Positions 224-16,219 of a stretch of 64,000 nt of DNA are shown here, piece by piece (position 1 is the stretch's first letter; every line of letters begins with the position of its first letter). The translations under genes were made by a program, and so were the position numbers. Source of the DNA: an uncultured Phycisphaerales bacterium. Its GTDB lineage: Bacteria > Planctomycetota > Phycisphaerae > Phycisphaerales > UBA1924. The notes beneath the pieces are model-generated. The model was not told the origin of the DNA and ran no database searches. It saw nothing but the letters and a program-made list of their open reading frames with translations. The stretch is taken from contig CBDVAM010000002.1 of the NCBI GenBank assembly GCA_965371965.1, positions 1,617 through 65,616 on the forward strand. Direction: 5' to 3'.

Positions 224-1804
224 ATGATTGTCTACTCCGCAAGTCTTCAGCTCACTAACCATGATGTGCTAACCAAGGTTGCCGGTGCTGTCGAGACTTG
301 GTTGAGCGAGAAGAAGGGACTGCTGGATATTTCGCCGCTCATGGATCAGCCGGCTCGCCGAGAGTTCGGCGACGGAGTCTACCTAGAAACCGCCAGGTCT
401 GAAGACGATGACTCCCCCGCATTTGCCGTCCGCTTCGCCCATCCTGATCGGCACGTTCGCGGTCGTGAGTGGCTAACAGAAGTCGGAGTGCGGGTTGGCA
501 AGGGAGAGTCCAACTGTACTATTGTGCTCCACACGAGTGAATCGAGCGCGCAGGTCAGTGCTCAGGTCGAAACCACGCGACCCCTCGTAGTGCCCGAAAT
601 CCTCGGGCGGTGCAGTCTCAGCAGCGGCACGGCTGGCGGCAAGCTGCGATACCTTACTGAGGCAGACTGTGAGGCCTTTGACTGGACAGTTAGGGATCCC
701 GATCGACGGCATCCTCTGGTTCTGGTCAGCCCTCGTGAGCGCGGCGGCTATTGCGTCGATCCCAACCGCCTGAATGACCTGCTCGTCGGCATAGCTGATG
801 TCGTGCTGATACCCGAGAGCACGGACACCTTTGCGATTGCCGACGCTATTGGCTCTCAGCTTTGCGCCTATCACGGCGCGGTCAACATTCTCTGGCCAGT
901 TGTCAATCGTGTGACGGGTTCGTTCGTACCCTCAACACGCCTGTTGACCGCCGATTTGGAGAATGTCTCGGCACAAGGCAAGCGGCCCGAACCGGACATA
1001 CTCGCACTGATCGGTCATCGCACCAACGCAGCAAATGCCCGAGCCCATATCTCCCCCGAGCGAGTCCAGACTCTTTCGCTCAGGGCGGCACTGACCAAGG
1101 CGGGCGAAGCCAAAACCGTGGAGGATGCCGACCTCGCTAGTTTGTACAAGCAGGTCGATGAGGACCAACGCGCGGAGATCTGCGACCTGAAGTCAACTCT
1201 GGAGATCGAGGAACGCGAGCGCAACGCTGCTGACAGCCAGGTCAAGGAGTTGGACAATACTGTCAAGGCGCTACAGGGCCAGTTGCAACGAGCGGGAAGC
1301 ACGACGTCGTTGTCAACGTCAGAGCTCTCAGATGAAGATCGAAACGCGATCGTCCAGGCGATGGCGGACAATGCCGCACTGCACGATTGTCTTGAGGCGA
1401 TTGGTCGCCTGTACCGTGGACGCGTCGTCATTCTCGACAGTGCGCTCGCCTCGGCTCGCAAAGCCAACAAATTCAACGCCCCAAGAAAGGCATTCGACCT
1501 TTTGTCACGCCTTTGTAGTGAGTACTACAACGCCATGATCACCGGAAAAGGCACCAACGCCGCAAGGCAGATCTTTGGGAAGAACGCGTTCTCTCCGAAA
1601 GAGTCCGAGACAGTCGAGGGGAACAGGCGAGCCGTCAAGCTGCGGACCTTCACCTACAAAGACGAGGATACGCCGATGATGGCACACCTGAAAATCGGTG
1701 TAAAACCCAGCGTTGCCGAGACCTTCCGCTGCCACTTCCTCTGGGATTCTGACGATCGTGTCATTGTAATCGGGCATTGTGGCAAGCATCTCGATCACAA
1801 GTGA
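224..1804 (+). CDS. hypothetical protein (~526 aa) with central coiled-coil; family not recognised
   Basis: ORF 203..1804. The ATG at 224 is preceded by GGAG (212-215) at 7-nt spacing. Central E/L/Q-rich heptad-like stretch (EICDLKSTLEIEERERNAADSQVKELDNTVKALQGQLQ). Visibly lower G+C than the rest of the window. Confidence 0.6.
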   Translation: MIVYSASLQLTNHDVLTKVAGAVETWLSEKKGLLDISPLMDQPARREFGDGVYLETARSEDDDSPAFAVRFAHPDRHVRGREWLTEVGVRVGKGESNCTIVLHTSESSAQVSAQVETTRPLVVPEILGRCSLSSGTAGGKLRYLTEADCEAFDWTVRDPDRRHPLVLVSPRERGGYCVDPNRLNDLLVGIADVVLIPESTDTFAIADAIGSQLCAYHGAVNILWPVVNRVTGSFVPSTRLLTADLENVSAQGKRPEPDILALIGHRTNAANARAHISPERVQTLSLRAALTKAGEAKTVEDADLASLYKQVDEDQRAEICDLKSTLEIEERERNAADSQVKELDNTVKALQGQLQRAGSTTSLSTSELSDEDRNAIVQAMADNAALHDCLEAIGRLYRGRVVILDSALASARKANKFNAPRKAFDLLSRLCSEYYNAMITGKGTNAARQIFGKNAFSPKESETVEGNRRAVKLRTFTYKDEDTPMMAHLKIGVKPSVAETFRCHFLWDSDDRVIVIGHCGKHLDHK

Positions 1805-3707: not shown

Positions 3708-4964
3708 TCAGCAGCCGATCACGAAAAGATCCAGGTACGCAAAGAAGTCGTTGGAATCGATGGTTCCGTTGCCATCAATGTCCGCCCTCGGATCATCGGC
3801 GGCAAAGAGATCCAGAAAGTCGAAGAAGTCGTCGGCATCGGCATCGCCGTCGCCGTCGATGTCGGCACCACAGTTCTTGGGCGGCGCGATCGCGTTGAAC
3901 AGCACGCTAGTCGTATTGCTGTCGCCATTCGGCACGGCCAGGTCGGCCATGGTGTCGCCGTTGAGGTCCGCGACGGCTATCTGCTGGGGAGCTGTGCCCG
4001 TGACGAACTGGACCGGCGCACCCAGCGTGCCGCCGAGGTTCTCCAGGCCGCTGACAAAGCTCAGATCCTCGTCGCCGACGACGACGTCGAGGTCGCCATC
4101 ACCGTCGAGGTCGACCGCGGCGATGTCGCCCGGGTTCTGCCCGCCGGTCGTGAAGAATGCCGGGCCGGTGAAGGTGCCCGCACCGGTGTTACTGAAGAGG
4201 TTGAGGAAATCGCCGGAGGCGAGTACGTCAACGTCGCCGTCGCCGTCCATGTCGCCGGTCTCGATCGAGCTCGGGCGCTGATTCGGTGTCGAGATGGACT
4301 GGGACATGCTGAACACGCCGGCGTTATTGGTGAAGAACGCCACGTCGCGGAGCTGGCGACGCCCTACGGCGAAGTCCAGATCGCCATCGCCGTCAAAGTC
4401 GCCGAAGTCTGCCCCGCCGGCCTCGTCACCGACCGAGACGTTGGTGGCGGTGAACACGCCGGCGTTGTTGACCAAGACCGAGACGCTGGCGCCGCTGCGA
4501 TTGGCGGTGAGCAGATCCATATCGCCATCGCCATCAACATCGCCCATTTTCATGGCGCGCGGCTCGCTACCGGTCGCGGCATCGCCCGCCGCACCGAACA
4601 CGCCGGCGGTGTTGGTATATACCCGCACGGTGTTCATGTTCTTGAGAACGACGGCGAAGTCTGTGTCGCCGTCGCCATCGAAGTCATGGGCCTGGAGCGT
4701 GTCGGCGCCGCTGTTCGCGCCGGTGAAGATCTCTGCGGTCTGGGTGAATACACCGGCGTTGTTGGTGAAGATGAGGACGCGGTCCGGTTGGGATACCGAG
4801 ACAGCGAGATCCATGTCACCGTCGCCATCCCAATCGCCCGCGGCGACACCGCCTGGGCGCTGCGCGGTCGCGAGGTTGGTTGCCGGGTCGAACGCCGGCA
4901 CTTCTGCGACCACCGAGGCCGCCAAGCCTGCCACGAGGATCGCACTGATTGTCTTTCTGGTCAT
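3708..4964 (-). CDS. secreted 7x FG-GAP (integrin-alpha-like propeller) protein with C-terminal Gly-Cys-terminated double-dockerin module (member A)
   Basis: ATG at 4964 (MTRKTISAILVAGLAASVVAEV signal peptide, AGGAG upstream). Seven repeats of type GDWDGDGDMDLAV / HDFDGDGDTDFAV. C-terminus NCGADIDGDGDADADDFFDFLDLFAADDPRADIDGNGTIDSNDFFAYLDLFVIGC*. Confidence 0.85.
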   Translation of the reverse strand: MTRKTISAILVAGLAASVVAEVPAFDPATNLATAQRPGGVAAGDWDGDGDMDLAVSVSQPDRVLIFTNNAGVFTQTAEIFTGANSGADTLQAHDFDGDGDTDFAVVLKNMNTVRVYTNTAGVFGAAGDAATGSEPRAMKMGDVDGDGDMDLLTANRSGASVSVLVNNAGVFTATNVSVGDEAGGADFGDFDGDGDLDFAVGRRQLRDVAFFTNNAGVFSMSQSISTPNQRPSSIETGDMDGDGDVDVLASGDFLNLFSNTGAGTFTGPAFFTTGGQNPGDIAAVDLDGDGDLDVVVGDEDLSFVSGLENLGGTLGAPVQFVTGTAPQQIAVADLNGDTMADLAVPNGDSNTTSVLFNAIAPPKNCGADIDGDGDADADDFFDFLDLFAADDPRADIDGNGTIDSNDFFAYLDLFVIGC

Positions 4965-5031
4965 GACTTCATCTCCTGTGTTTGAAGAGCTCGTTGATAC
5001 GCCGCACAGCGCGGCACCGATGAGTTGCATG

Positions 5032-8903: not shown

Positions 8904-10994
8904 TCAGCAGCCCGCTGCAAACAGATCTAAATACCCAAAGAAATCGTCGGCGTCGATGTCGCCATCGCCATCGATGTCGGCGGCGGGATCGCGGGTGGCG
9001 AAGAGATCGAGATACGCGAAGAAGTCGTCGGCATCGATGTCGCCGTCGCCATCGAGGTCGGCGGGACACGGGGTCGCGGTGGAGATGATGCGGCCGCCCC
9101 ACCCGGCTGCCCAGAGGTCGCCCGAGGGCGAGGCGTCGAGCTGAGCCGGGTTGTAGGGGAACAGGGAGTCGCGGCTGCGGATCCAGGTCTGCCCGCCGTT
9201 GACGGTGTGGAGCGTGATCGGTTGGATCTGGCGATCGACCCCGACGACCCAGACCTCATTGGCGCTGATGACCGCGACACCCATGGCGACGCGGACCTCG
9301 TGGTTGTTGCCGAAGTCGAAGGTCTGCCATGTCCGCCCGCCGTCGAGTGTGCGTGCGGCGTAGTCCCACCATCCGACGGCCCAGCCGACGTTCTCGTCGA
9401 TGAACTGCATGTCCTGGATGGTGGGGTTGTCGCCGAAGTAGACGTCGGGCAGCGTGACGTCCTGCCATGTGTTGCCTCCGTCATCGGTGCGGTGCAGGAT
9501 GCCGCCGAGGCGCATGATCCAGCCCTTGTCCTCACCGATGAACTGGATGAGCTCGAAGGCTGCGCCGTCGAACGGGCGGAACCAGGTTTGCCCGCCGTTG
9601 AGCGTGCGGTAGATGGATTCTTGCGTTCTGAACATGTCTCGATTGGAACCGACGACCCAGATGTCGTCGGGGGTTCGTGCGGCGATATCCCTGATGTCGA
9701 GATCGACGGGCAGGCGTCCACCACTGCTGATGGGCATCCAGTTCTGCCCCGCGTCCACAGACTTGAACACCGTGCCGCCGGGACCGGCGATAAAGGCGTT
9801 CTGATCGTCGAGAATGTCAACAGCGTTGAGTGATTCGTCGAAGCCGAACTCCTGGCCCCGGATCTCCGGCTTCTGGACGGTCCAGTGGGTGCCCCCGTCG
9901 GTGGTCCGCATCACATAGGTATTGCGGGCGACGGCGATTCCATACCTGTCGGTGTGCATCTCGATGGCGGTGATATCCATGCCGATGCCGTTGGTGATGT
10001 ACTGCCAAGTCTGCCCCCCGTCGCTGGTGCGATAGATGATGCCGCGAGCGCCCGTGAGGATCCCGACCCCTGCGTCTGTGAAGTTGAGTTCCCAGGTGTA
10101 CGGCAGATCGCCGATGGCGTCGAGCGTCTTGGTCCAGGTGGTGCCGAGGTCGTGGGAGAGCCAGACATCGCCCTGGTGGGAGGCCCCGGCGATCGTAAAC
10201 TCGTCGACGAGCGCGAGATCGTTGAGTGGGCCGTCCTCCTCGAACTCCTGCGAGACCGCGGCCCAGGATTGCCCGCCATCGGTCGAGCGATAGACCTGCC
10301 CGGGCAGGACTCCCGTCGCCACCGCCGTGTTCTGATCGACGTACATGACGTCGTTGATGACCGCATCGAGGACGTGTGTCCAGGTTCGCCCACCATCGGT
10401 AGTCCTAAAAATCCCGTCCAGATCGTCGGGGATCTGATGGCCCGACACGAGACCGATCTCGGCGTCGATGAAGTCTGAGCCCCAGGCAATCGGGCAGTCG
10501 GGCCATCCCAAGCGCAGTTCCCAGGTCTGCCCGCCGTCGGTCGTGCCCGCGCAGGCGCCGTTGGCCATGAAGATGCCGTGGGTCGGGCTCTCGAAGTCGA
10601 TGAACCTCCACGAGCCCGCCATGCCAGGCATGGGCGTCCAGGTCTGGCCGCCATCGGTGGTGCGCAGGGCGTCGGAGTTGTTGCCGGTGACCCAGCCGTG
10701 GTTCTCGTCAATGAAGAAGACGTCGTAGTAGGGATTGGTGCTGTGAGCCTCGAGGTTGCGCTCGATCCAGGTCCGCCCGCCGTCGAATGTCTCGAAGAGC
10801 GCTCGGTTGCGGCCGACCATGAAGCCGTGCAGCGGTGTGGCGAACGCCACGCTGTTGAGGTCACGGTCTGTGGGAAGCACGCTCTGCCTGGTCCATTGTG
10901 GCTGTGCGTTTGCGAGGGAGGCAGCGCCAGCGATCGCAAGCAGCCAGGAGAACGCGAGAGTGTTCAGGGTTCGGCTTGTCCGTTGGGTCTTCAC
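8904..10994 (-). CDS. secreted BNR/Asp-box (sortilin/Ycf48-like) propeller protein with Gly-Cys double-dockerin module (member D)
   Basis: Many SxDxGxTW boxes (TDGGQTW, DGGRTW, TDGGTHW...). The GTG at 10994 has a strong SD (AGAGGAGGAG) and gives a clean signal peptide (KTQRTSRTLNTLAFSWLLAIAGAASLANA/Q). An alternative ATG lies at 11024. C-terminus PCPADLDGDGDIDADDFFAYLDLFATRDPAADIDGDGDIDADDFFGYLDLFAAGC*. Confidence 0.85.
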   Translation of the reverse strand: MKTQRTSRTLNTLAFSWLLAIAGAASLANAQPQWTRQSVLPTDRDLNSVAFATPLHGFMVGRNRALFETFDGGRTWIERNLEAHSTNPYYDVFFIDENHGWVTGNNSDALRTTDGGQTWTPMPGMAGSWRFIDFESPTHGIFMANGACAGTTDGGQTWELRLGWPDCPIAWGSDFIDAEIGLVSGHQIPDDLDGIFRTTDGGRTWTHVLDAVINDVMYVDQNTAVATGVLPGQVYRSTDGGQSWAAVSQEFEEDGPLNDLALVDEFTIAGASHQGDVWLSHDLGTTWTKTLDAIGDLPYTWELNFTDAGVGILTGARGIIYRTSDGGQTWQYITNGIGMDITAIEMHTDRYGIAVARNTYVMRTTDGGTHWTVQKPEIRGQEFGFDESLNAVDILDDQNAFIAGPGGTVFKSVDAGQNWMPISSGGRLPVDLDIRDIAARTPDDIWVVGSNRDMFRTQESIYRTLNGGQTWFRPFDGAAFELIQFIGEDKGWIMRLGGILHRTDDGGNTWQDVTLPDVYFGDNPTIQDMQFIDENVGWAVGWWDYAARTLDGGRTWQTFDFGNNHEVRVAMGVAVISANEVWVVGVDRQIQPITLHTVNGGQTWIRSRDSLFPYNPAQLDASPSGDLWAAGWGGRIISTATPCPADLDGDGDIDADDFFAYLDLFATRDPAADIDGDGDIDADDFFGYLDLFAAGC

Positions 10995-11228
10995 GGTCTC
11001 CTCCTCTTTCGCAGGCACCAGCATCAACCGACCTGCGTGCGGGCACCCCACGAGCGACGCCACCCTGCGGCCCGTTCGCAGGGAGCGTGATGCGTTGGCC
11101 CCGCCCTGCGGTCTCGTCGGATGATGCCCGGCGAATCGCGCTGGGGGCGAGTTCAAGGGCGAGTCGGGCGATTTCTCATCTCGCTCGCCGGGACAGGTCG
11201 CCGGGGCTGGGTCCCGGAAGAGGAGAGA

Positions 11229-11357
11229 TTAACCTCTATCTGCAAAGAGGTCGAGGTATGCGAAGAAATCGTCGGCGTCGGTGTCGCCATCGGCAAGGGC
11301 CATTGGATCTGCGCCGACGATGACTGCTGCCAGAGCCCAACTCTTCTTACAGATCAT
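11229..11357 (-). CDS. 42-aa mini-ORF: signal-peptide-like N-terminus plus one dockerin repeat
   Basis: Hand-translated because it is below the ORF-track cutoff: MICKKSWALAAVIVGADPMALADGDTDADDFFAYLDLFADRG*. GGAGA lies 3-4 nt upstream of the ATG. It sits ~50 nt downstream of the sigma54 element at 11419-11433. It could be a functional peptide or a decayed family member. Confidence 0.4.
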   Translation of the reverse strand: MICKKSWALAAVIVGADPMALADGDTDADDFFAYLDLFADRG

Positions 11358-11418
11358 TTCCGGTCTCCATGTCGCTTGAGGACGACGGCTCGCCGAAACC
11401 TCCGACGCTTAGTCATGT

Positions 11419-11433
11419 GCAATGCGTGTGCCA
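11419..11433 (-). promoter_or_regulatory. sigma54 (RpoN) -24/-12 promoter, perfect core TGGCAC-N5-TTGC
   Basis: The minus strand reads TTTGGCACACGCATTGCA (reverse complement of 11418-11435). It is intergenic, upstream of the mini-ORF and of members D-C-B. Confidence 0.7.
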
Positions 11434-11529
11434 AACGCTCGCACATGGTCATTCCGCGATGATCCGGCCCCAAGCGGTGGTGTTCGTCTGCGAGATTCGG
11501 CCGTCTTGTTCAACCCGCGACGGGCAGCG

Positions 11530-11542
11530 CACAATATTGGCC
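11530..11542. promoter_or_regulatory. candidate enhancer/UAS motif (copy 3, inverted): CACAATATTGGCC = reverse complement GGCCAATATTGTG
   Basis: About 100 bp upstream of the sigma54 element at 11419-11433, the same spacing as copy 1 relative to 5032-5046. Contains the palindrome CAATATTG. Confidence 0.35.
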
Positions 11543-11629
11543 GGATCCGTTGTCCGGCAGCGACGGGTGCCGTGCTCTAGAACTCGCAATCGGCGTGTTC
11601 AACCGAAAGCAGGTCGCGCCGAACTCACG

Positions 11630-13189
11630 CTACGGGCATCCCATCACGAACATGTCGAGGTAGTAGAAGAAGTCGTTGGAGTCGATAATGAGATCGGGCA
11701 GGCCGTACTCCGAGGAGTCCGGGTCGGAAGACCCCGTCATGTCGGCCTCGGCCAGGCTGTCGCTCGAGAACTGGTCGAGGTAATAAAAGAAATCGTCGCC
11801 ATCGACGTCGCCGTCGGGAACGCCATAGCTTCCATCGCCAGAGTTCGATGACCCGGTGAGATCGCCCCGGCAGAAGAGACCCCGGTCTTCGAACTCAATC
11901 ACGGAGTTGCCATCAAGATCAAACAGGCTGAAGTTTGGTCCGCATCCGGGCACGACCACCCGCCCGTCCACCCGCCCGTCGGCGTCGCACGAGGTCCCGT
12001 CGAGCGCGGCGAGCGCGTCCTCATACTCTCTCACGTCCTGGCCATTGACTCGCTCGTCGGCGTTGAGATCACACGGTCGCACGTCAAAGCCGACATCGGT
12101 CCAGACATACAGCCCGTCTTCCTGCTTCGCATACGACGTGCCAAACAGCGCGGTGACGTCCCATTCGCTCGGCTCCAGTGCATCCTCGGCCTTCTTGTGT
12201 TCCCATCGCTCGGTGAGCACCTCGACCTCGCCATTGAGGCCCCCGGCATGGTCGATCAGATCCTGGACCGCCTCGATGACGCTGTGATGGCTGAACGGGC
12301 CGATCTCGTAGTCGATTGGCTCCTCGGGCTCGCCGGTGAGCTGCGCGGCACCAGCCATCGTCAGCGCCTCGACCAGCGTGATGGTCGTCGTATCGGTCGC
12401 GATGTCGTGGCTGAATCGAATGTTTACTTTCGGATCATACAGTCCGAAGTCGGTGCCGCCGAAGACCTCGCTGGCGTCCTGATATCCCGCGGCCCGCTGA
12501 AAGTACCGGCTGCGAACGACCCAGGTCTCGCCGGCCTCGAAGGTGTCGTCCTGGTCGCCGCCGGCCTTGGATTCGATCGTCACCCTATGGCAGCCGCAGA
12601 GCACCAGCGAGAAGTCCTCGCCCGATCGCTCGAAGAAGGGCTCGGTCCAGAAATCAAGATCGTGGTCCCCACATCCGCCCGGCCCGGCGCCGCTGCGCGC
12701 TGCACGCTCGCCGATGTCATCGCCGGGAAGCCCGCCGAATCGCCCGACATTCGCCAGGAATCGGAGTTCGGCGGCTCCCCCGAGCTCTCCGCCGGTGTCC
12801 TCGTCATGATCGACGTCGAACTCGAGGAACCCGAGCACGGGGCTCGGTCCAAAGATGAATGCCTCAAACGGACCGCCCCCGATGCCGACTCTGCCCGAAG
12901 GATTCACAAGGCCAACGAAGGAAACGTCCAACCGAAAGAGTTCAGCGTCGTCGTCGTCCTCCACCTCGCCGGTGTACGGATCGATAAGAGCGTCGTCCGC
13001 TCGCCAGCCGCTGAGGGTCACCCGCAGCACGTCCGGCAGATTGCTCAATGGATTCAGCGCCGCGACGCACCCGGTATCGGTCCGCCGGACTGTTGCGTCG
13101 CCGAACCCATCGACGAACCTCGCGACGTCGTCGCTCGCCGTTGCGCCGAGGCACGCCACCGCCGGAACACACCACGCCCATCGCCTCAT
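11630..13189 (-). CDS. secreted protein of unknown N-terminal fold with divergent Gly-Cys-Pro double-dockerin module (member E)
   Basis: The ATG at 13189 overlaps the TGA of the upstream response-regulator gene (ATGA). Signal peptide [19 protein letters not shown]-terminus ...FCRGDLTGSSNSGDGSYGVPDGDVDGDDFFYYLDQFSSDSLAEADMTGSSDPDSSEYGLPDLIIDSNDFFYYLDMFVMGCP*. Confidence 0.8.
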   Translation of the reverse strand: MRRWAWCVPAVACLGATASDDVARFVDGFGDATVRRTDTGCVAALNPLSNLPDVLRVTLSGWRADDALIDPYTGEVEDDDDAELFRLDVSFVGLVNPSGRVGIGGGPFEAFIFGPSPVLGFLEFDVDHDEDTGGELGGAAELRFLANVGRFGGLPGDDIGERAARSGAGPGGCGDHDLDFWTEPFFERSGEDFSLVLCGCHRVTIESKAGGDQDDTFEAGETWVVRSRYFQRAAGYQDASEVFGGTDFGLYDPKVNIRFSHDIATDTTTITLVEALTMAGAAQLTGEPEEPIDYEIGPFSHHSVIEAVQDLIDHAGGLNGEVEVLTERWEHKKAEDALEPSEWDVTALFGTSYAKQEDGLYVWTDVGFDVRPCDLNADERVNGQDVREYEDALAALDGTSCDADGRVDGRVVVPGCGPNFSLFDLDGNSVIEFEDRGLFCRGDLTGSSNSGDGSYGVPDGDVDGDDFFYYLDQFSSDSLAEADMTGSSDPDSSEYGLPDLIIDSNDFFYYLDMFVMGCP

Positions 13190-14670
13190 GACGTTCTCTC
13201 CGCGATCTCTCGAACCTTGTCCTCGAGCCCGTACCGCTCGATGCGATACCGGAAGCTGCTCCGCTGCATGCCGATGAGCTTGGAGGCCTTGGAGACGTTG
13301 CCGCGGGTGTGCTCGAGCGCCTGGAGCATGAGGGCCTGCTCGACCTGGTCCACCTTGTGCATGCCTCGCTCGAAGTCGAATCTCGGCGTGCCGCCGATGG
13401 GCGTCGCCTTGCCGTTGCTGTGCTCTATGCCCGCCCGCGGATGGGCGATCCCGATATCCGCGGCCTCGACCATCTTGGTCTCGCTCAGCATCGCGGCCCG
13501 CTGGATCGCGTTGGCCAGCTCTCTGACGTTGCCCGCCCAGCGGTGCGAGAGGATCGCCGACTCGCACGCCGGCGACAAATCCAGTCCATCGCGCCCGTAG
13601 CGAGCGCCCATGTCTTCCAGGAGTTCGCGTGCAATCAGCAAGGCATCCTGCTCCCGCTCGCGTAAGGGCGGGATCTCGATCGGGAATGCTGCGAGGCGGA
13701 AGAACAGGTCTCGCCGAAACTTGCCGTCCTCGGCGAGCGACTCAAGCTCCTGGTTTGACGCTGCGATGACCCGCGCCCGCACCTTGCGCTCGCGCGATCC
13801 GCCGACGCGCCGGAACGTGCCCTGCTCGACAACGACGAGCAGCTTGGCCTGGAGCTCCAGCGGCATCTCGCTGATCTCGTCAAGAAAGATTGTGCCGCCA
13901 TCGGCCATCTCGAACAGCCCGGTGCGCGAGGTCCGTGCGTCGGTGAAGGCGCCCTTCTCGTGCCCGAACAGCTCGCCCTCGACGAGGCTTGCCGGCAGCG
14001 CCGAGCAGTTGACGTGGACGAACGGCGGCTCGTCCTTGGTCGATGATGGCTGGCGTTCGACCGCCATGTCGTGGATGTATCGAGCGAGCACACCCTTGCC
14101 AACGCCGGTCTCGCCGAGCAGCAGGATTGTGGGCAGGGCCCCGCCGGGATCGGCGCCCAAGGGCATCTGCGCGAGGCGTGCGGACAGATCGAGGCACTTG
14201 AGCCAGGCCGCGCTCTGTCCCAGGACCTTCCGCCCCTGCTCGCGCGTCCGTTCCAGACGCTCGTACAGCTCGACCTTCTGGCTCAGTCGGCGATGCTCCA
14301 GCCACCTGGGAAGCTGGATCAGCAGCTCCTCGATGACGATGGGCTTCTGGAGATAGTCGTTGGCCCCATCGCGCATCGCCTCGACGGCGTGCTCGACGCT
14401 GCCGTAGGCCGTCATCACGATGATGACCCCGTCGAAGCCGTCGGCACGCAGCTCGCGCACGAACTCCAGCCCGTCTTCTTCGCCCAGATGTACGTCGGTG
14501 AGAACGAGGTCCAGGCTCTCCCGTTGCGACACGCCCCGCGCCGATCCGATCGACTCGCCCTCAAACACCTCGTGCCCGGCCTTTGTCAGCGATCGAGAAA
14601 CAGAGAATCTCAGGTTCTCTTCGTCCTCAATAATGAGAATCCTGGCCACCGTCTGCTCCTGACTGGCCAT
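13186..14670 (-). CDS. sigma54-dependent response regulator (NtrC family: REC + AAA+ EBP + Fis-type HTH)
   Basis: REC domain ([11 protein letters not shown]...DLVLTDVHL). Walker [18 protein letters not shown]-loop variant [28 protein letters not shown]-terminal [29 protein letters not shown]. Start taken at ATG 14670, overlapping the HK gene end by 44 nt; the start is uncertain. Confidence 0.9.
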
Positions 14671-16219
14671 TATTGGCCAGGCTTCCTGTCTGCACCTGAT
14701 CGGGCAAGACCAGGGAGAACCTCGCTCCCGTGCCATGAGCCTCGCCCGAACCACCGTCACTGGACGTACCGAGGCTCTCGACCTCGATTCGCCCGCCGTG
14801 TCCTCTCACCGCATGGAGTGCAGATGCAAGTCCGATGCCAGTCCCCTGCTTCTTCGTCGTGAACGACGGACGGAAGAGGTTCGGGAGCACTTCGTCGGAT
14901 ATTCCCGCCCCCTCGTCGGTTATCGACACTGTCCATGAGCCATCGGTCGCTGATGGGGCTATACGGACAACTCCGCCCTTTGGGGTGGCCTCGATGGCAT
15001 TGGCCAAAATAGCCGCCAAGGCGTGCCCCATGTGGTCCGGGTCGAACACGCGGGTGCTCATGGCCCGCGCGCCGCCAAGATCGCACTCGATCGCCACCCC
15101 CCTTGAGGCCGCCATCGGCTCGTGGGCCTGGATCACGCCCCGAAGCCACGATTCCACAGACACCTCACGACAATCCAAGTCGGCGGGGGAGGTCGCCCGC
15201 AGCAGGCGGTTGAGCCACTCCTCGAATCGGTCCACCGCATCGATGATCCGACGCTGGCTGTCCTTGAGATCCTGGTCCTCGACCTCCTGATGGGTCATCT
15301 CGGCGAGCCCGCGAATACCTGAAAGGGGATTGCGGATGTTGTGGACCAGGCGGCGCATCATCTGCCCGACGGCGACGAGGCGCTCTCGCTCGATGCGCTC
15401 TTCCTGGCTCCGCTCGACCAGCCCGGCCATCAGATTCACCTCGCGAGCCAGGGTCGAGAGCTCGTCCTTGCCCCGCGGATGCAGGCGATAGGAGAACTCG
15501 CCGGCACCGATGCGTTCGGCGGCGACGCGGAGCTCCTCGATCGGTCTCACGACCCAGCGACCGACCAGCGAGAGGCTGAGCAGCCCGACCAGCCCGGCGA
15601 GCACCGCGACCAGACCCAGCACCGCGATGAGGCGTACGCGGAGCTGGGACTCGAACGCCTCGGCAAAATTGGTGTCTTCGAGGACGCGCCCCTCGATCTT
15701 CTCGATCAACTCGTGGATCTCAAAGAGCGCAAGCCCGGCTCGGCGGCGAGCGACATCATCCTGGGACTCTCCCCATTTCATGGCGTCGGTGTGGGTATCC
15801 TCGATTCGCCTTCGCAGGTTCCGCTGACGCAGGATCACCGACTCGCCCTCTCTTGCACGAATGCGCCAGCGCTCTGCATGCTGGAGAACATCCAGTTGGG
15901 ACTTCATCTGGTTGGTGCGTGCACCAAACGCGTCGGCATCGAACTCCGGTGGCTCGCCAGAACGCTCGCCCCGCACGCCATGCCCCTCGGATTCTGGAGC
16001 TGTGTCGCCCCAGCTTGGCTCTCCGAGCAGCATCGTCGCCTGTGCCTCGGCACCGCGCTTTATTGTTCGCAGTGACGTCAGCACGCTCGCCATGTTCTGG
16101 GCGGGACGCGAGACCTCTCGTTCAATGATCGCGAACGACGACCACGCCGAGGCGAGGCTGACAAGCACCGCGAGGCCGAACATTGCGAGGAGGATCACGA
16201 ATCGCCGACGGATGGTCAT
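14627..16219 (-). CDS. sensor histidine kinase (2 TM, ~170-aa periplasmic region, HAMP, HisKA, HATPase)
   Basis: TM1 FVILLAMFGLAVLVSLASAW, TM2 LIAVLGLVAVLAGLVGLLSLSLVG, then a HAMP domain. H-box VHNIRNPLSGIRGLAEM. G-boxes DEGAGI / GTGIGL. Confidence 0.9.
   Translation of the reverse strand: MTIRRRFVILLAMFGLAVLVSLASAWSSFAIIEREVSRPAQNMASVLTSLRTIKRGAEAQATMLLGEPSWGDTAPESEGHGVRGERSGEPPEFDADAFGARTNQMKSQLDVLQHAERWRIRAREGESVILRQRNLRRRIEDTHTDAMKWGESQDDVARRRAGLALFEIHELIEKIEGRVLEDTNFAEAFESQLRVRLIAVLGLVAVLAGLVGLLSLSLVGRWVVRPIEELRVAAERIGAGEFSYRLHPRGKDELSTLAREVNLMAGLVERSQEERIERERLVAVGQMMRRLVHNIRNPLSGIRGLAEMTHQEVEDQDLKDSQRRIIDAVDRFEEWLNRLLRATSPADLDCREVSVESWLRGVIQAHEPMAASRGVAIECDLGGARAMSTRVFDPDHMGHALAAILANAIEATPKGGVVRIAPSATDGSWTVSITDEGAGISDEVLPNLFRPSFTTKKQGTGIGLASALHAVRGHGGRIEVESLGTSSDGGSGEAHGTGARFSLVLPDQVQTGSLANNGQSGADGGQDSHY

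Follow-up and report, generated by a model that had tools for sequence, protein, structure and literature searches.

A 42-codon open reading frame in a sigma-54-driven array of GC-type dockerin genes is probably a young rearrangement relic

The window analyzed here is a 64-kb stretch of DNA from the metagenome bin (233 contigs, 3.7 Mb) of an uncultured Phycisphaerales bacterium, and its minus strand carries, in order, a histidine kinase gene, an NtrC-type sigma-54 activator gene (13186-14760), gene E, a sigma-54 promoter followed by a small open reading frame (the mini-ORF), a 234-nt spacer, a BNR/Ycf48-like propeller gene (the BNR gene), and a Reg_prop propeller gene. The mini-ORF (11357..11229, minus strand; ATG at 11357..11355, TAA at 11231..11229) is predicted by the gene caller on the source contig and has 42 codons translating to MICKKSWALAAVIVGADPMALADGDTDADDFFAYLDLFADRG*, exactly as given in the preliminary description of this locus. 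Gene E (11630..13189, minus strand) is conserved, directly follows the activator gene, and encodes 519 amino acids with a GC-type dockerin. The BNR gene (8904..10994, minus strand) has a GTG start at 10994, a Shine-Dalgarno sequence (GAGGAGGAGA) at 11006..10997, and a complete GC-type dockerin, and the Reg_prop gene that comes next has a GC-type dockerin tail as well. The mini-ORF thus sits within an array of GC-type dockerin genes, under what is predicted to be the same sigma-54 control, in a genome with at least 150 domains of this family (NF041540).

The promoter ahead of the mini-ORF is a perfect match (TGGCACacgcaTTGCA, 11433..11418, minus strand) to the sigma-54 consensus that we used, TGGCAC-N5-TTGCW, and it is the only such core in the window, where 0.04 would be expected by chance. 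It predicts a transcription start near 11407, about 50 nt ahead of the ATG, in agreement with the distance proposed in the preliminary description. A further motif (GGCCAATATTGTG, 11530..11542, minus strand) lies about 125 nt upstream of the predicted start and is probably an activator site, to which the activator would bind. Equivalent cores occur at the syntenic site of two congeners (TGGCACagaagTTGCA in genome G002 and TGGCACgggtaTTGCA in genome G003), so that the predicted promoter is conserved at the orthologous site in both. The upstream motif recurs in G003 (locus L028) as GGCCAATATTGTC beside the core TGGCACgggtaTTGCA, with the shared element GGCCAATATTGT, and is degenerate in G002.

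The first half of the mini-ORF resembles the beginning of a genuine gene in three respects. A Shine-Dalgarno-like GGAGA (11364..11368, minus strand) precedes the ATG by 6 nt; the preliminary description had noted this element correctly but had placed it only 3 to 4 nt away. A GGAG or GAGG at positions -14 to -5 is found at 6.7% of all ATGs in the genome. Codons 1 to 22 (11292..11357, minus strand; MICKKSWALAAVIVGADPMALA) encode a signal-peptide-like N terminus with no DNA paralog in the genome by blastn. We judged signal peptides by a crude rule of our own making rather than a trained predictor, based on n, h, and c regions plus an AxA site (a positive n region, an uncharged hydrophobic h region of about 10 residues, and small residues at -3 and -1); the mini-ORF and five neighboring genes pass this rule, as do 2.6% of ATG-started open stretches genome-wide, and the Sec signal with an AxA-type site suggested previously is therefore plausible, with export a prediction. 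Finally, the ATG lies 60 nt past the sigma-54 core, within the 34 to 71 nt that separate core and start codon, by our own reading of the sequences, in full-length genes behind equivalent promoters. Because the start signals, the signal-like N terminus, and the promoter spacing all agree with a true gene start, the N-terminal half looks like the former start of a gene. Its GC3 is 0.59, compared to 0.82 +/- 0.11 in genes, and the last three codons of the mini-ORF (GAT AGA GGT) have a GC3 of 0, which is atypical among the genes of this genome; these values are suggestive of relaxed constraint at both ends but not decisive.

Family resemblance begins only behind this N terminus and is confined to about 54 nt, as a blastn comparison of positions 10995-11640 to the whole genome demonstrated. 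This core (11295..11242, minus strand) encodes an alanine followed by the 17 residues DGDTDADDFFAYLDLFA, a near-consensus single GC-type dockerin repeat, and is the sole part of the mini-ORF with paralogs according to blastn, nhmmer, and in-register identity. Its DNA is up to 93 to 94% identical to paralogous repeats; the best blastn paralog (C8:2504-2553) has 94% identity over 50 nt. A DNA profile built from 87 two-repeat domains of the same genome recovered the region 11295..11234 (nhmmer E = 9e-16, profile positions 12 to 73), and when a 42-nt core was compared in register to all 220 repeat units of the genome, the mean identity was 0.77 and the best 0.93. The 30 nt flanking the core on either side show 0.29 to 0.38 identity, which is the background level, to first and second repeats alike, and neither the own-genome DNA profile nor a three-frame protein profile, both run with filters off, found a second repeat in 10995-11640. 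The dockerin piece, as judged from these alignments, is a solitary core with sharp edges. We could not assign it to repeat 1 or repeat 2, since the DNA profile prefers repeat 1 while the identities of core and flanks are equal for the two and the best paralogs are of both kinds. We also considered whether the signal peptide could itself be a decayed first repeat and linker (SWALAAVIVGADP derived from FFAYLDLFAAGDP), and rejected this: the profiles stop at 11295 even with filters off, the upstream flank is at background, and a codon-by-codon count gives about 35%.

The mini-ORF is not a member of the GC-type dockerin family, as it fails every defining feature tested. The family model NF041540 matches its C-terminal half over profile positions 12 to 31 of 67 with 22.9 bits (E = 8.2e-5), below the curated cutoff of 29 bits, and a Pfam search of the mini-ORF returned no match, including to dockerin or EF-hand families. 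All seven GC-dockerin domains neighboring it in the window have two tandem loop-helix repeats, while the mini-ORF has one; G53 and C54 are invariant across these seven domains, while the mini-ORF ends in LFADRG*, so that the absence of the terminal Gly-Cys reported previously holds, also when one or two further residues are allowed after it. The family domain sits at the C terminus of a large secreted passenger protein, while the mini-ORF, 42 amino acids in total, has no passenger domain and its repeat comes directly after the signal peptide. The calcium loop is also incomplete. Using EF-hand numbering transferred to the mini-ORF from an alignment of the full GC-dockerin domain to calcineurin B, the family loop reads D1-L2-D3-G4-D5-G6-D7-I8-D9-A10-D11-D12-FF, and the corresponding stretch of the mini-ORF reads M-A-L-A-D5-G6-D7-T8-D9-A10-D11-D12-FF. 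In a calcium loop of 12 residues, positions 1, 3, 5, and 12 supply acidic or oxygen ligands and position 6 is a glycine; here positions 5, 6, 7, 9, and 12 are present and positions 1 to 4, which include the acidic ligands 1 and 3, are missing. The predicted signal-peptidase cut (ALA|DG) would leave a peptide that begins at loop position 5. The view in the preliminary description that the mature peptide is exactly one calcium-loop/helix half-dockerin consequently has to be abandoned.

Structural predictions give a similar picture. The 54-amino-acid GC-dockerin of the BNR gene (8907-9068, minus strand) was modeled with a pLDDT of 94.7 from only seven sequences as a compact two-helix domain in which the two repeats pack on each other, each with a calcium loop ahead of its helix. 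Its best PDB matches by Foldseek are cohesin-bound dockerins (2y3n_B, 2ozn_B, 5k39_B, and 2vn5_D; TM scores of 0.55 to 0.61, rmsd of 2.4 to 2.8 Å), albeit with weak E values (0.2 to 2) due to the small size of the domain. The full domain therefore resembles cellulosomal dockerins of types I and II (2y3n_B, 2vn5_D, 2ozn_B) and EF-hand pairs in having two helices, each after a calcium loop, with loops that align to EF-hand loops, whereas the mini-ORF is half of such a module with an incomplete loop. The mini-ORF model reached a pLDDT of only 60.7, with a helix for each of its two parts, the signal-like region and the repeat, and we would not expect half a module whose loop is incomplete to show the folding or calcium binding of the full domain. 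To our knowledge no cohesin partner of the GC-type dockerin has been described, and a literature search for the term "GC-type dockerin" found no paper that mentions it.

Proteins with the architecture of the mini-ORF could not be found elsewhere. Among 5.8e9 (5.8 billion) protein clusters, the only short protein (23 to 73 amino acids) sharing words with the mini-ORF was the mini-ORF itself, the sole member of its cluster, and in an exhaustive phmmer search of 1.84e9 (1.84 billion) representatives it was likewise the only full-length match. The other 11 phmmer matches are proteins of 70 to 410 amino acids that align via the repeat and have at least two matched stretches, and all seven that we read are complete two-repeat domains. 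In three congeners no match to the mini-ORF reaches residues 1 to 4. Matches to the repeat in short frames of these relatives (G002:C25, G001:C51, and G003:C251) were examined as possible relics and proved to be merely contig ends.

The gene cassette upstream of the mini-ORF, by contrast, is kept across several Phycisphaerales (loci L014, L028, and L032). It comprises an N-methyl pseudopilin-like gene, a HAMP histidine kinase, the sigma-54 activator, gene E, and then the sigma-54 promoter (11418-16219, minus strand), and while gene E retains 58 to 74% identity, each species examined has different genes behind the promoter. In G002, the gene E ortholog (74% identity) and the sigma-54 core are followed by a full-length 528-amino-acid propeller GC-dockerin gene, then a beta-helix gene, and then the ortholog of the Reg_prop gene of the window. 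In G003, as well as on a 58-kb contig of the same species, gene E and the core are followed by a 419-amino-acid FG-GAP GC-dockerin gene and then the end of the array; this FG-GAP gene is the counterpart of a gene in the window (3708-5030) that has a second sigma-54 promoter of its own. One contig of G003 (C23, locus L015) carries a Nextera transposase adapter (AGATGTGTATAAGAGACAG) at positions 5 to 23 of its end, a contamination that truncates the dockerin of the FG-GAP gene. The preliminary description had looked to conservation in related genomes as a check on the mini-ORF, and the outcome was negative: it is absent from the promoter-bearing syntenic site of two congeners, where full-length GC-dockerin genes stand instead. 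Here the intergenic gap behind gene E measures 635 nt, compared to the 173 to 337 nt that separate gene E from the next called gene in relatives. Taken together, the syntenic sites and this difference in gap length show that the promoter is conserved while the payload behind it turns over, and that the site in this genome carries extra, unique DNA that includes the mini-ORF. The closest gene E homologs have about 73 to 74%, 69%, 64%, and 58% identity, and with gene E as the query, neither two scans of metagenomes nor one of genomes turned up anything new in the way of closer relatives.

We identified no parent gene for the mini-ORF, a result that is limited by the lack of power of DNA comparisons at this divergence. 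When the leader and N terminus were globally aligned to the first gene of either G002 or G003, or to the second promoter of the window and the FG-GAP gene behind it, the scores remained at the level of shuffled sequences, and so did that of a true orthologous pair (the second promoter and its gene, P2/A, compared to G003).

Downstream of the mini-ORF, the spacer of 234 nt (10995..11228, minus strand) is open in the mini-ORF frame; searches for paralogs, orthologs, and Rfam families found none, and a 58-nt stretch that the spacer shares with genome G018 is a spurious match inside an ABC-ATPase gene. No Rfam families, terminators, or extra promoters were found in 10800-11800, nor was a predicted terminator or a second sigma-54 core found between the mini-ORF and the BNR gene, and the mini-ORF would now lie within a leader of about 410 nt of a sigma-54 transcript of the BNR gene if, as we infer, the two are cotranscribed. 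The BNR gene itself has no ortholog in the three congeners; its best relative (49% identity) belongs to another genus and has no sigma-54 core within about 1.5 kb on either side. The mini-ORF and the BNR gene share a reading frame (10992-11357, minus strand), and the TAA at 11231..11229 is the sole stop from the ATG at 11357 to the end of the BNR gene at 8904. A read-through fusion of the two was considered and rejected, as the 78 codons in between (beginning SLLFRDPAPATCPGERDEK) look noncoding and the BNR gene has its own signal peptide; the shared frame is probably a coincidence. Directly after the mini-ORF stop comes a polypyrimidine tract of 13 nt (UCUCUCCUCUUCC, 11216..11228, minus strand), for which folding predicts pairing with the ribosome-binding site of the BNR gene.

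Orphan dockerin fragments are also present at other places in this genome, and one congener has one as well. Contigs C54 (minus strand, reverse-complement coordinates 2693-2786) and C89 (minus strand, 341-437) carry solitary second repeats that retain the GC* end in frames of 30 to 31 codons without a start codon. On contig C54 the repeat comes about 170 nt after an alpha/beta-hydrolase-like gene and has the look of a severed dockerin tail. In the congener G001 (locus L037, G001:C113:2500-3300), a 68-codon stop-to-stop frame without a start (positions 333-539, minus strand) encodes a complete orphan two-repeat dockerin (...CDGDADSDDFFAFLDAF...CDADDFFAYLDLFHLDC*) directly behind a full GC-dockerin gene, and to judge from its sequence this frame is clearly what is left of a gene whose body was lost. 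Evidently, such debris arises when tandem family members undergo deletion or recombine with each other.

In our view the mini-ORF is likely to be no dedicated gene but a relic of recent rearrangement, in an array of sigma-54-driven genes that changes rapidly. The closing sigma-54 promoter of the conserved cassette would drive a variable payload of secreted GC-type dockerin proteins, and in this genome the original first payload gene would have been lost or replaced such that the BNR gene now follows. Of the old gene, the ribosome-binding site, the start, and the codons for the signal peptide would have survived and been fused, in the same frame, to a single repeat core of about 54 nt that is truncated within the calcium loop; three unrelated codons and then a stop come after the core. 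How these events took place, and in which order, is our reconstruction. The fragment would now form part of the leader of the BNR gene, where it may well be translated as an upstream ORF, and any product, a 42-amino-acid prepeptide without two calcium ligands, a partner repeat, or the terminal Gly-Cys, would be a by-product. We prefer this reading because homology is restricted to one core, the arrangement is unique, it is absent from the syntenic site in congeners, and sibling relics exist; fragmentary homology, absence at orthologous sites, and siblings of this kind are features of gene relics, and the at least 150 domains in the genome offer an ample source for recombination. Decay is hinted at by a loop that is cut short, by the loss of the GC end, and by the low GC3 at both the N terminus and the tail. 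The core itself has no damaging substitution, and the start codon, Shine-Dalgarno sequence, and signal-like region are all intact, indicating that the relic is either recent or maintained by selection or gene conversion. This intactness counts against a relic, as do the failure to find a parent gene, the in-frame fusion, which has only a 1-in-3 chance of arising, and the need to explain two junctions, one on each side of the core (at about 11296 and 11241). Of the two explanations offered in the preliminary description, a deletion remnant joining the signal peptide of a family member to its last repeat is the better supported, but the origin from a last repeat and the idea of a single clean deletion are unsupported, since the flanks of the core match first repeats as poorly as second repeats and the Gly-Cys is gone.

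The other explanation, a secreted free half-dockerin that competes with full-length modules, received no positive support: the ORF lacks conservation, part of the calcium loop, and the Gly-Cys end, and in the full domain the two repeats are predicted to pack together. In its general form, a functional secreted mini-protein would be exported by Sec and cut after ALA to release an acidic peptide of 20 amino acids (DGDTDADDFFAYLDLFADRG) that pairs with a second copy of itself or with one repeat of a complete dockerin, or else competes for a dockerin receptor. Isolated EF-hand peptides can dimerize into a paired domain, and the intact start codon, Shine-Dalgarno sequence, and signal-like region, together with an intact repeat helix that scores well against the family profile, are what such a peptide would need; sigma-54 would moreover induce it at the same time as the dockerin proteins. 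Nevertheless, no homolog of this architecture was recovered anywhere we searched and the same site in two congeners lacks it, calcium ligands 1 and 3 and the Gly-Cys end are lost, the score is below the family cutoff and Pfam gives no match, the model is poor (pLDDT of 60.7) where the full domain forms a compact two-helix structure (pLDDT of 94.7), and the tail codons GAT AGA GGT have a GC3 of 0, all of which make a functional secreted peptide quite improbable. An assembly artifact, in which unrelated loci were joined through the repeated dockerin core, would be conceivable in a metagenome bin of 233 contigs with at least 150 repeat copies, but we regard it as very unlikely, as the longest exact match of 11200-11370 elsewhere in the assembly is 27 nt, below the final k-mers of the usual assemblers, a chimera would leave family context on each side of the core where both flanks are in fact nonfamily sequence, and the 65.8-kb contig is syntenic with relatives on both sides.

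The predicted pairing downstream raises the question of whether the mini-ORF acts as an upstream ORF whose peptide is irrelevant, such that a ribosome terminating at the UAA would melt a long-range helix and couple translation of the BNR gene to that of the mini-ORF. The good Shine-Dalgarno sequence, the position in the predicted leader, and the lack of a predicted terminator or second sigma-54 core are compatible with this. In both minimum free energy and partition-function folds, 11228..11216 pairs with 11012..10997 with probabilities of 0.5 to 0.97 and the GTG start pairs with 11260..11263, within the ORF; among segments of the leader, the one at the mini-ORF stop codon forms the best duplex with the BNR Shine-Dalgarno sequence, and polypyrimidine tracts of at least 13 nt are rare (0.045 per kb per strand). 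However, the BNR Shine-Dalgarno region pairs just as well with 3% of 25-nt stretches drawn at random from the genome, so that about 12 would be expected among the overlapping stretches of the leader, and the z-score of the leader fold is only -2.1. Pairing of the tract with the Shine-Dalgarno sequence is thus not above chance in the duplex-energy control and is not statistically compelling. The arrangement is found in no relative, which leaves nothing conserved and no covariation, and the leader transcript is itself predicted, and we consider coupling through this helix unlikely. A relic since put to use, either as an upstream ORF that unmasks the ribosome-binding site of the BNR gene or as a newborn Sec-exported acidic half-dockerin peptide of 20 residues, appears unlikely to a similar degree.

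Viewed against known systems, the mini-ORF is most like the recombination relics of tandem paralog arrays, which it resembles in its fragmentary, sharp-edged homology, its restriction to one lineage, and the gene content that varies between congeners. It differs from the relics on contigs C54, C89, and G001:C113 in having a start codon, a Shine-Dalgarno sequence, a signal-like N terminus, and an active-looking promoter directly ahead of it, features from which we predict that it is probably still translated. In the RNA phage MS2, translation of the coat and replicase genes is coupled through long-range RNA pairing between an upstream ORF and the downstream gene; the mini-ORF is alike in being a short leader ORF whose stop is immediately followed by a tract predicted to mask the ribosome-binding site of the gene downstream, but here the coupling is a prediction with weak statistics and no conservation over a distance of 220 nt.

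As a probable relic, the mini-ORF would be one more recombination scar in a very large paralog family and would carry little weight by itself. Its value would lie in marking a payload exchange behind a conserved sigma-54 promoter, and thereby the turnover of the GC-dockerin array between species of one genus. It also provides a caution for annotation, since the corresponding 42-amino-acid "protein" in databases probably does not represent a family. If, on the other hand, the mini-ORF is translated and controls the BNR gene, or if its product is exported, it would be a tidy case of small-gene birth from gene debris, a new small gene built from the start of one gene and the repeat of another, and an exported peptide could give a first handle on the recognition of GC-type dockerins. 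The array of G002 (L014, G002:C121:10000-29999) carries four perfect TGGCAC-N5-TTGC cores within 20 kb, at positions 1124, 2365, 8715, and 14715 on the minus strand, which suggests that several of its payload genes each have a sigma-54 promoter of their own.
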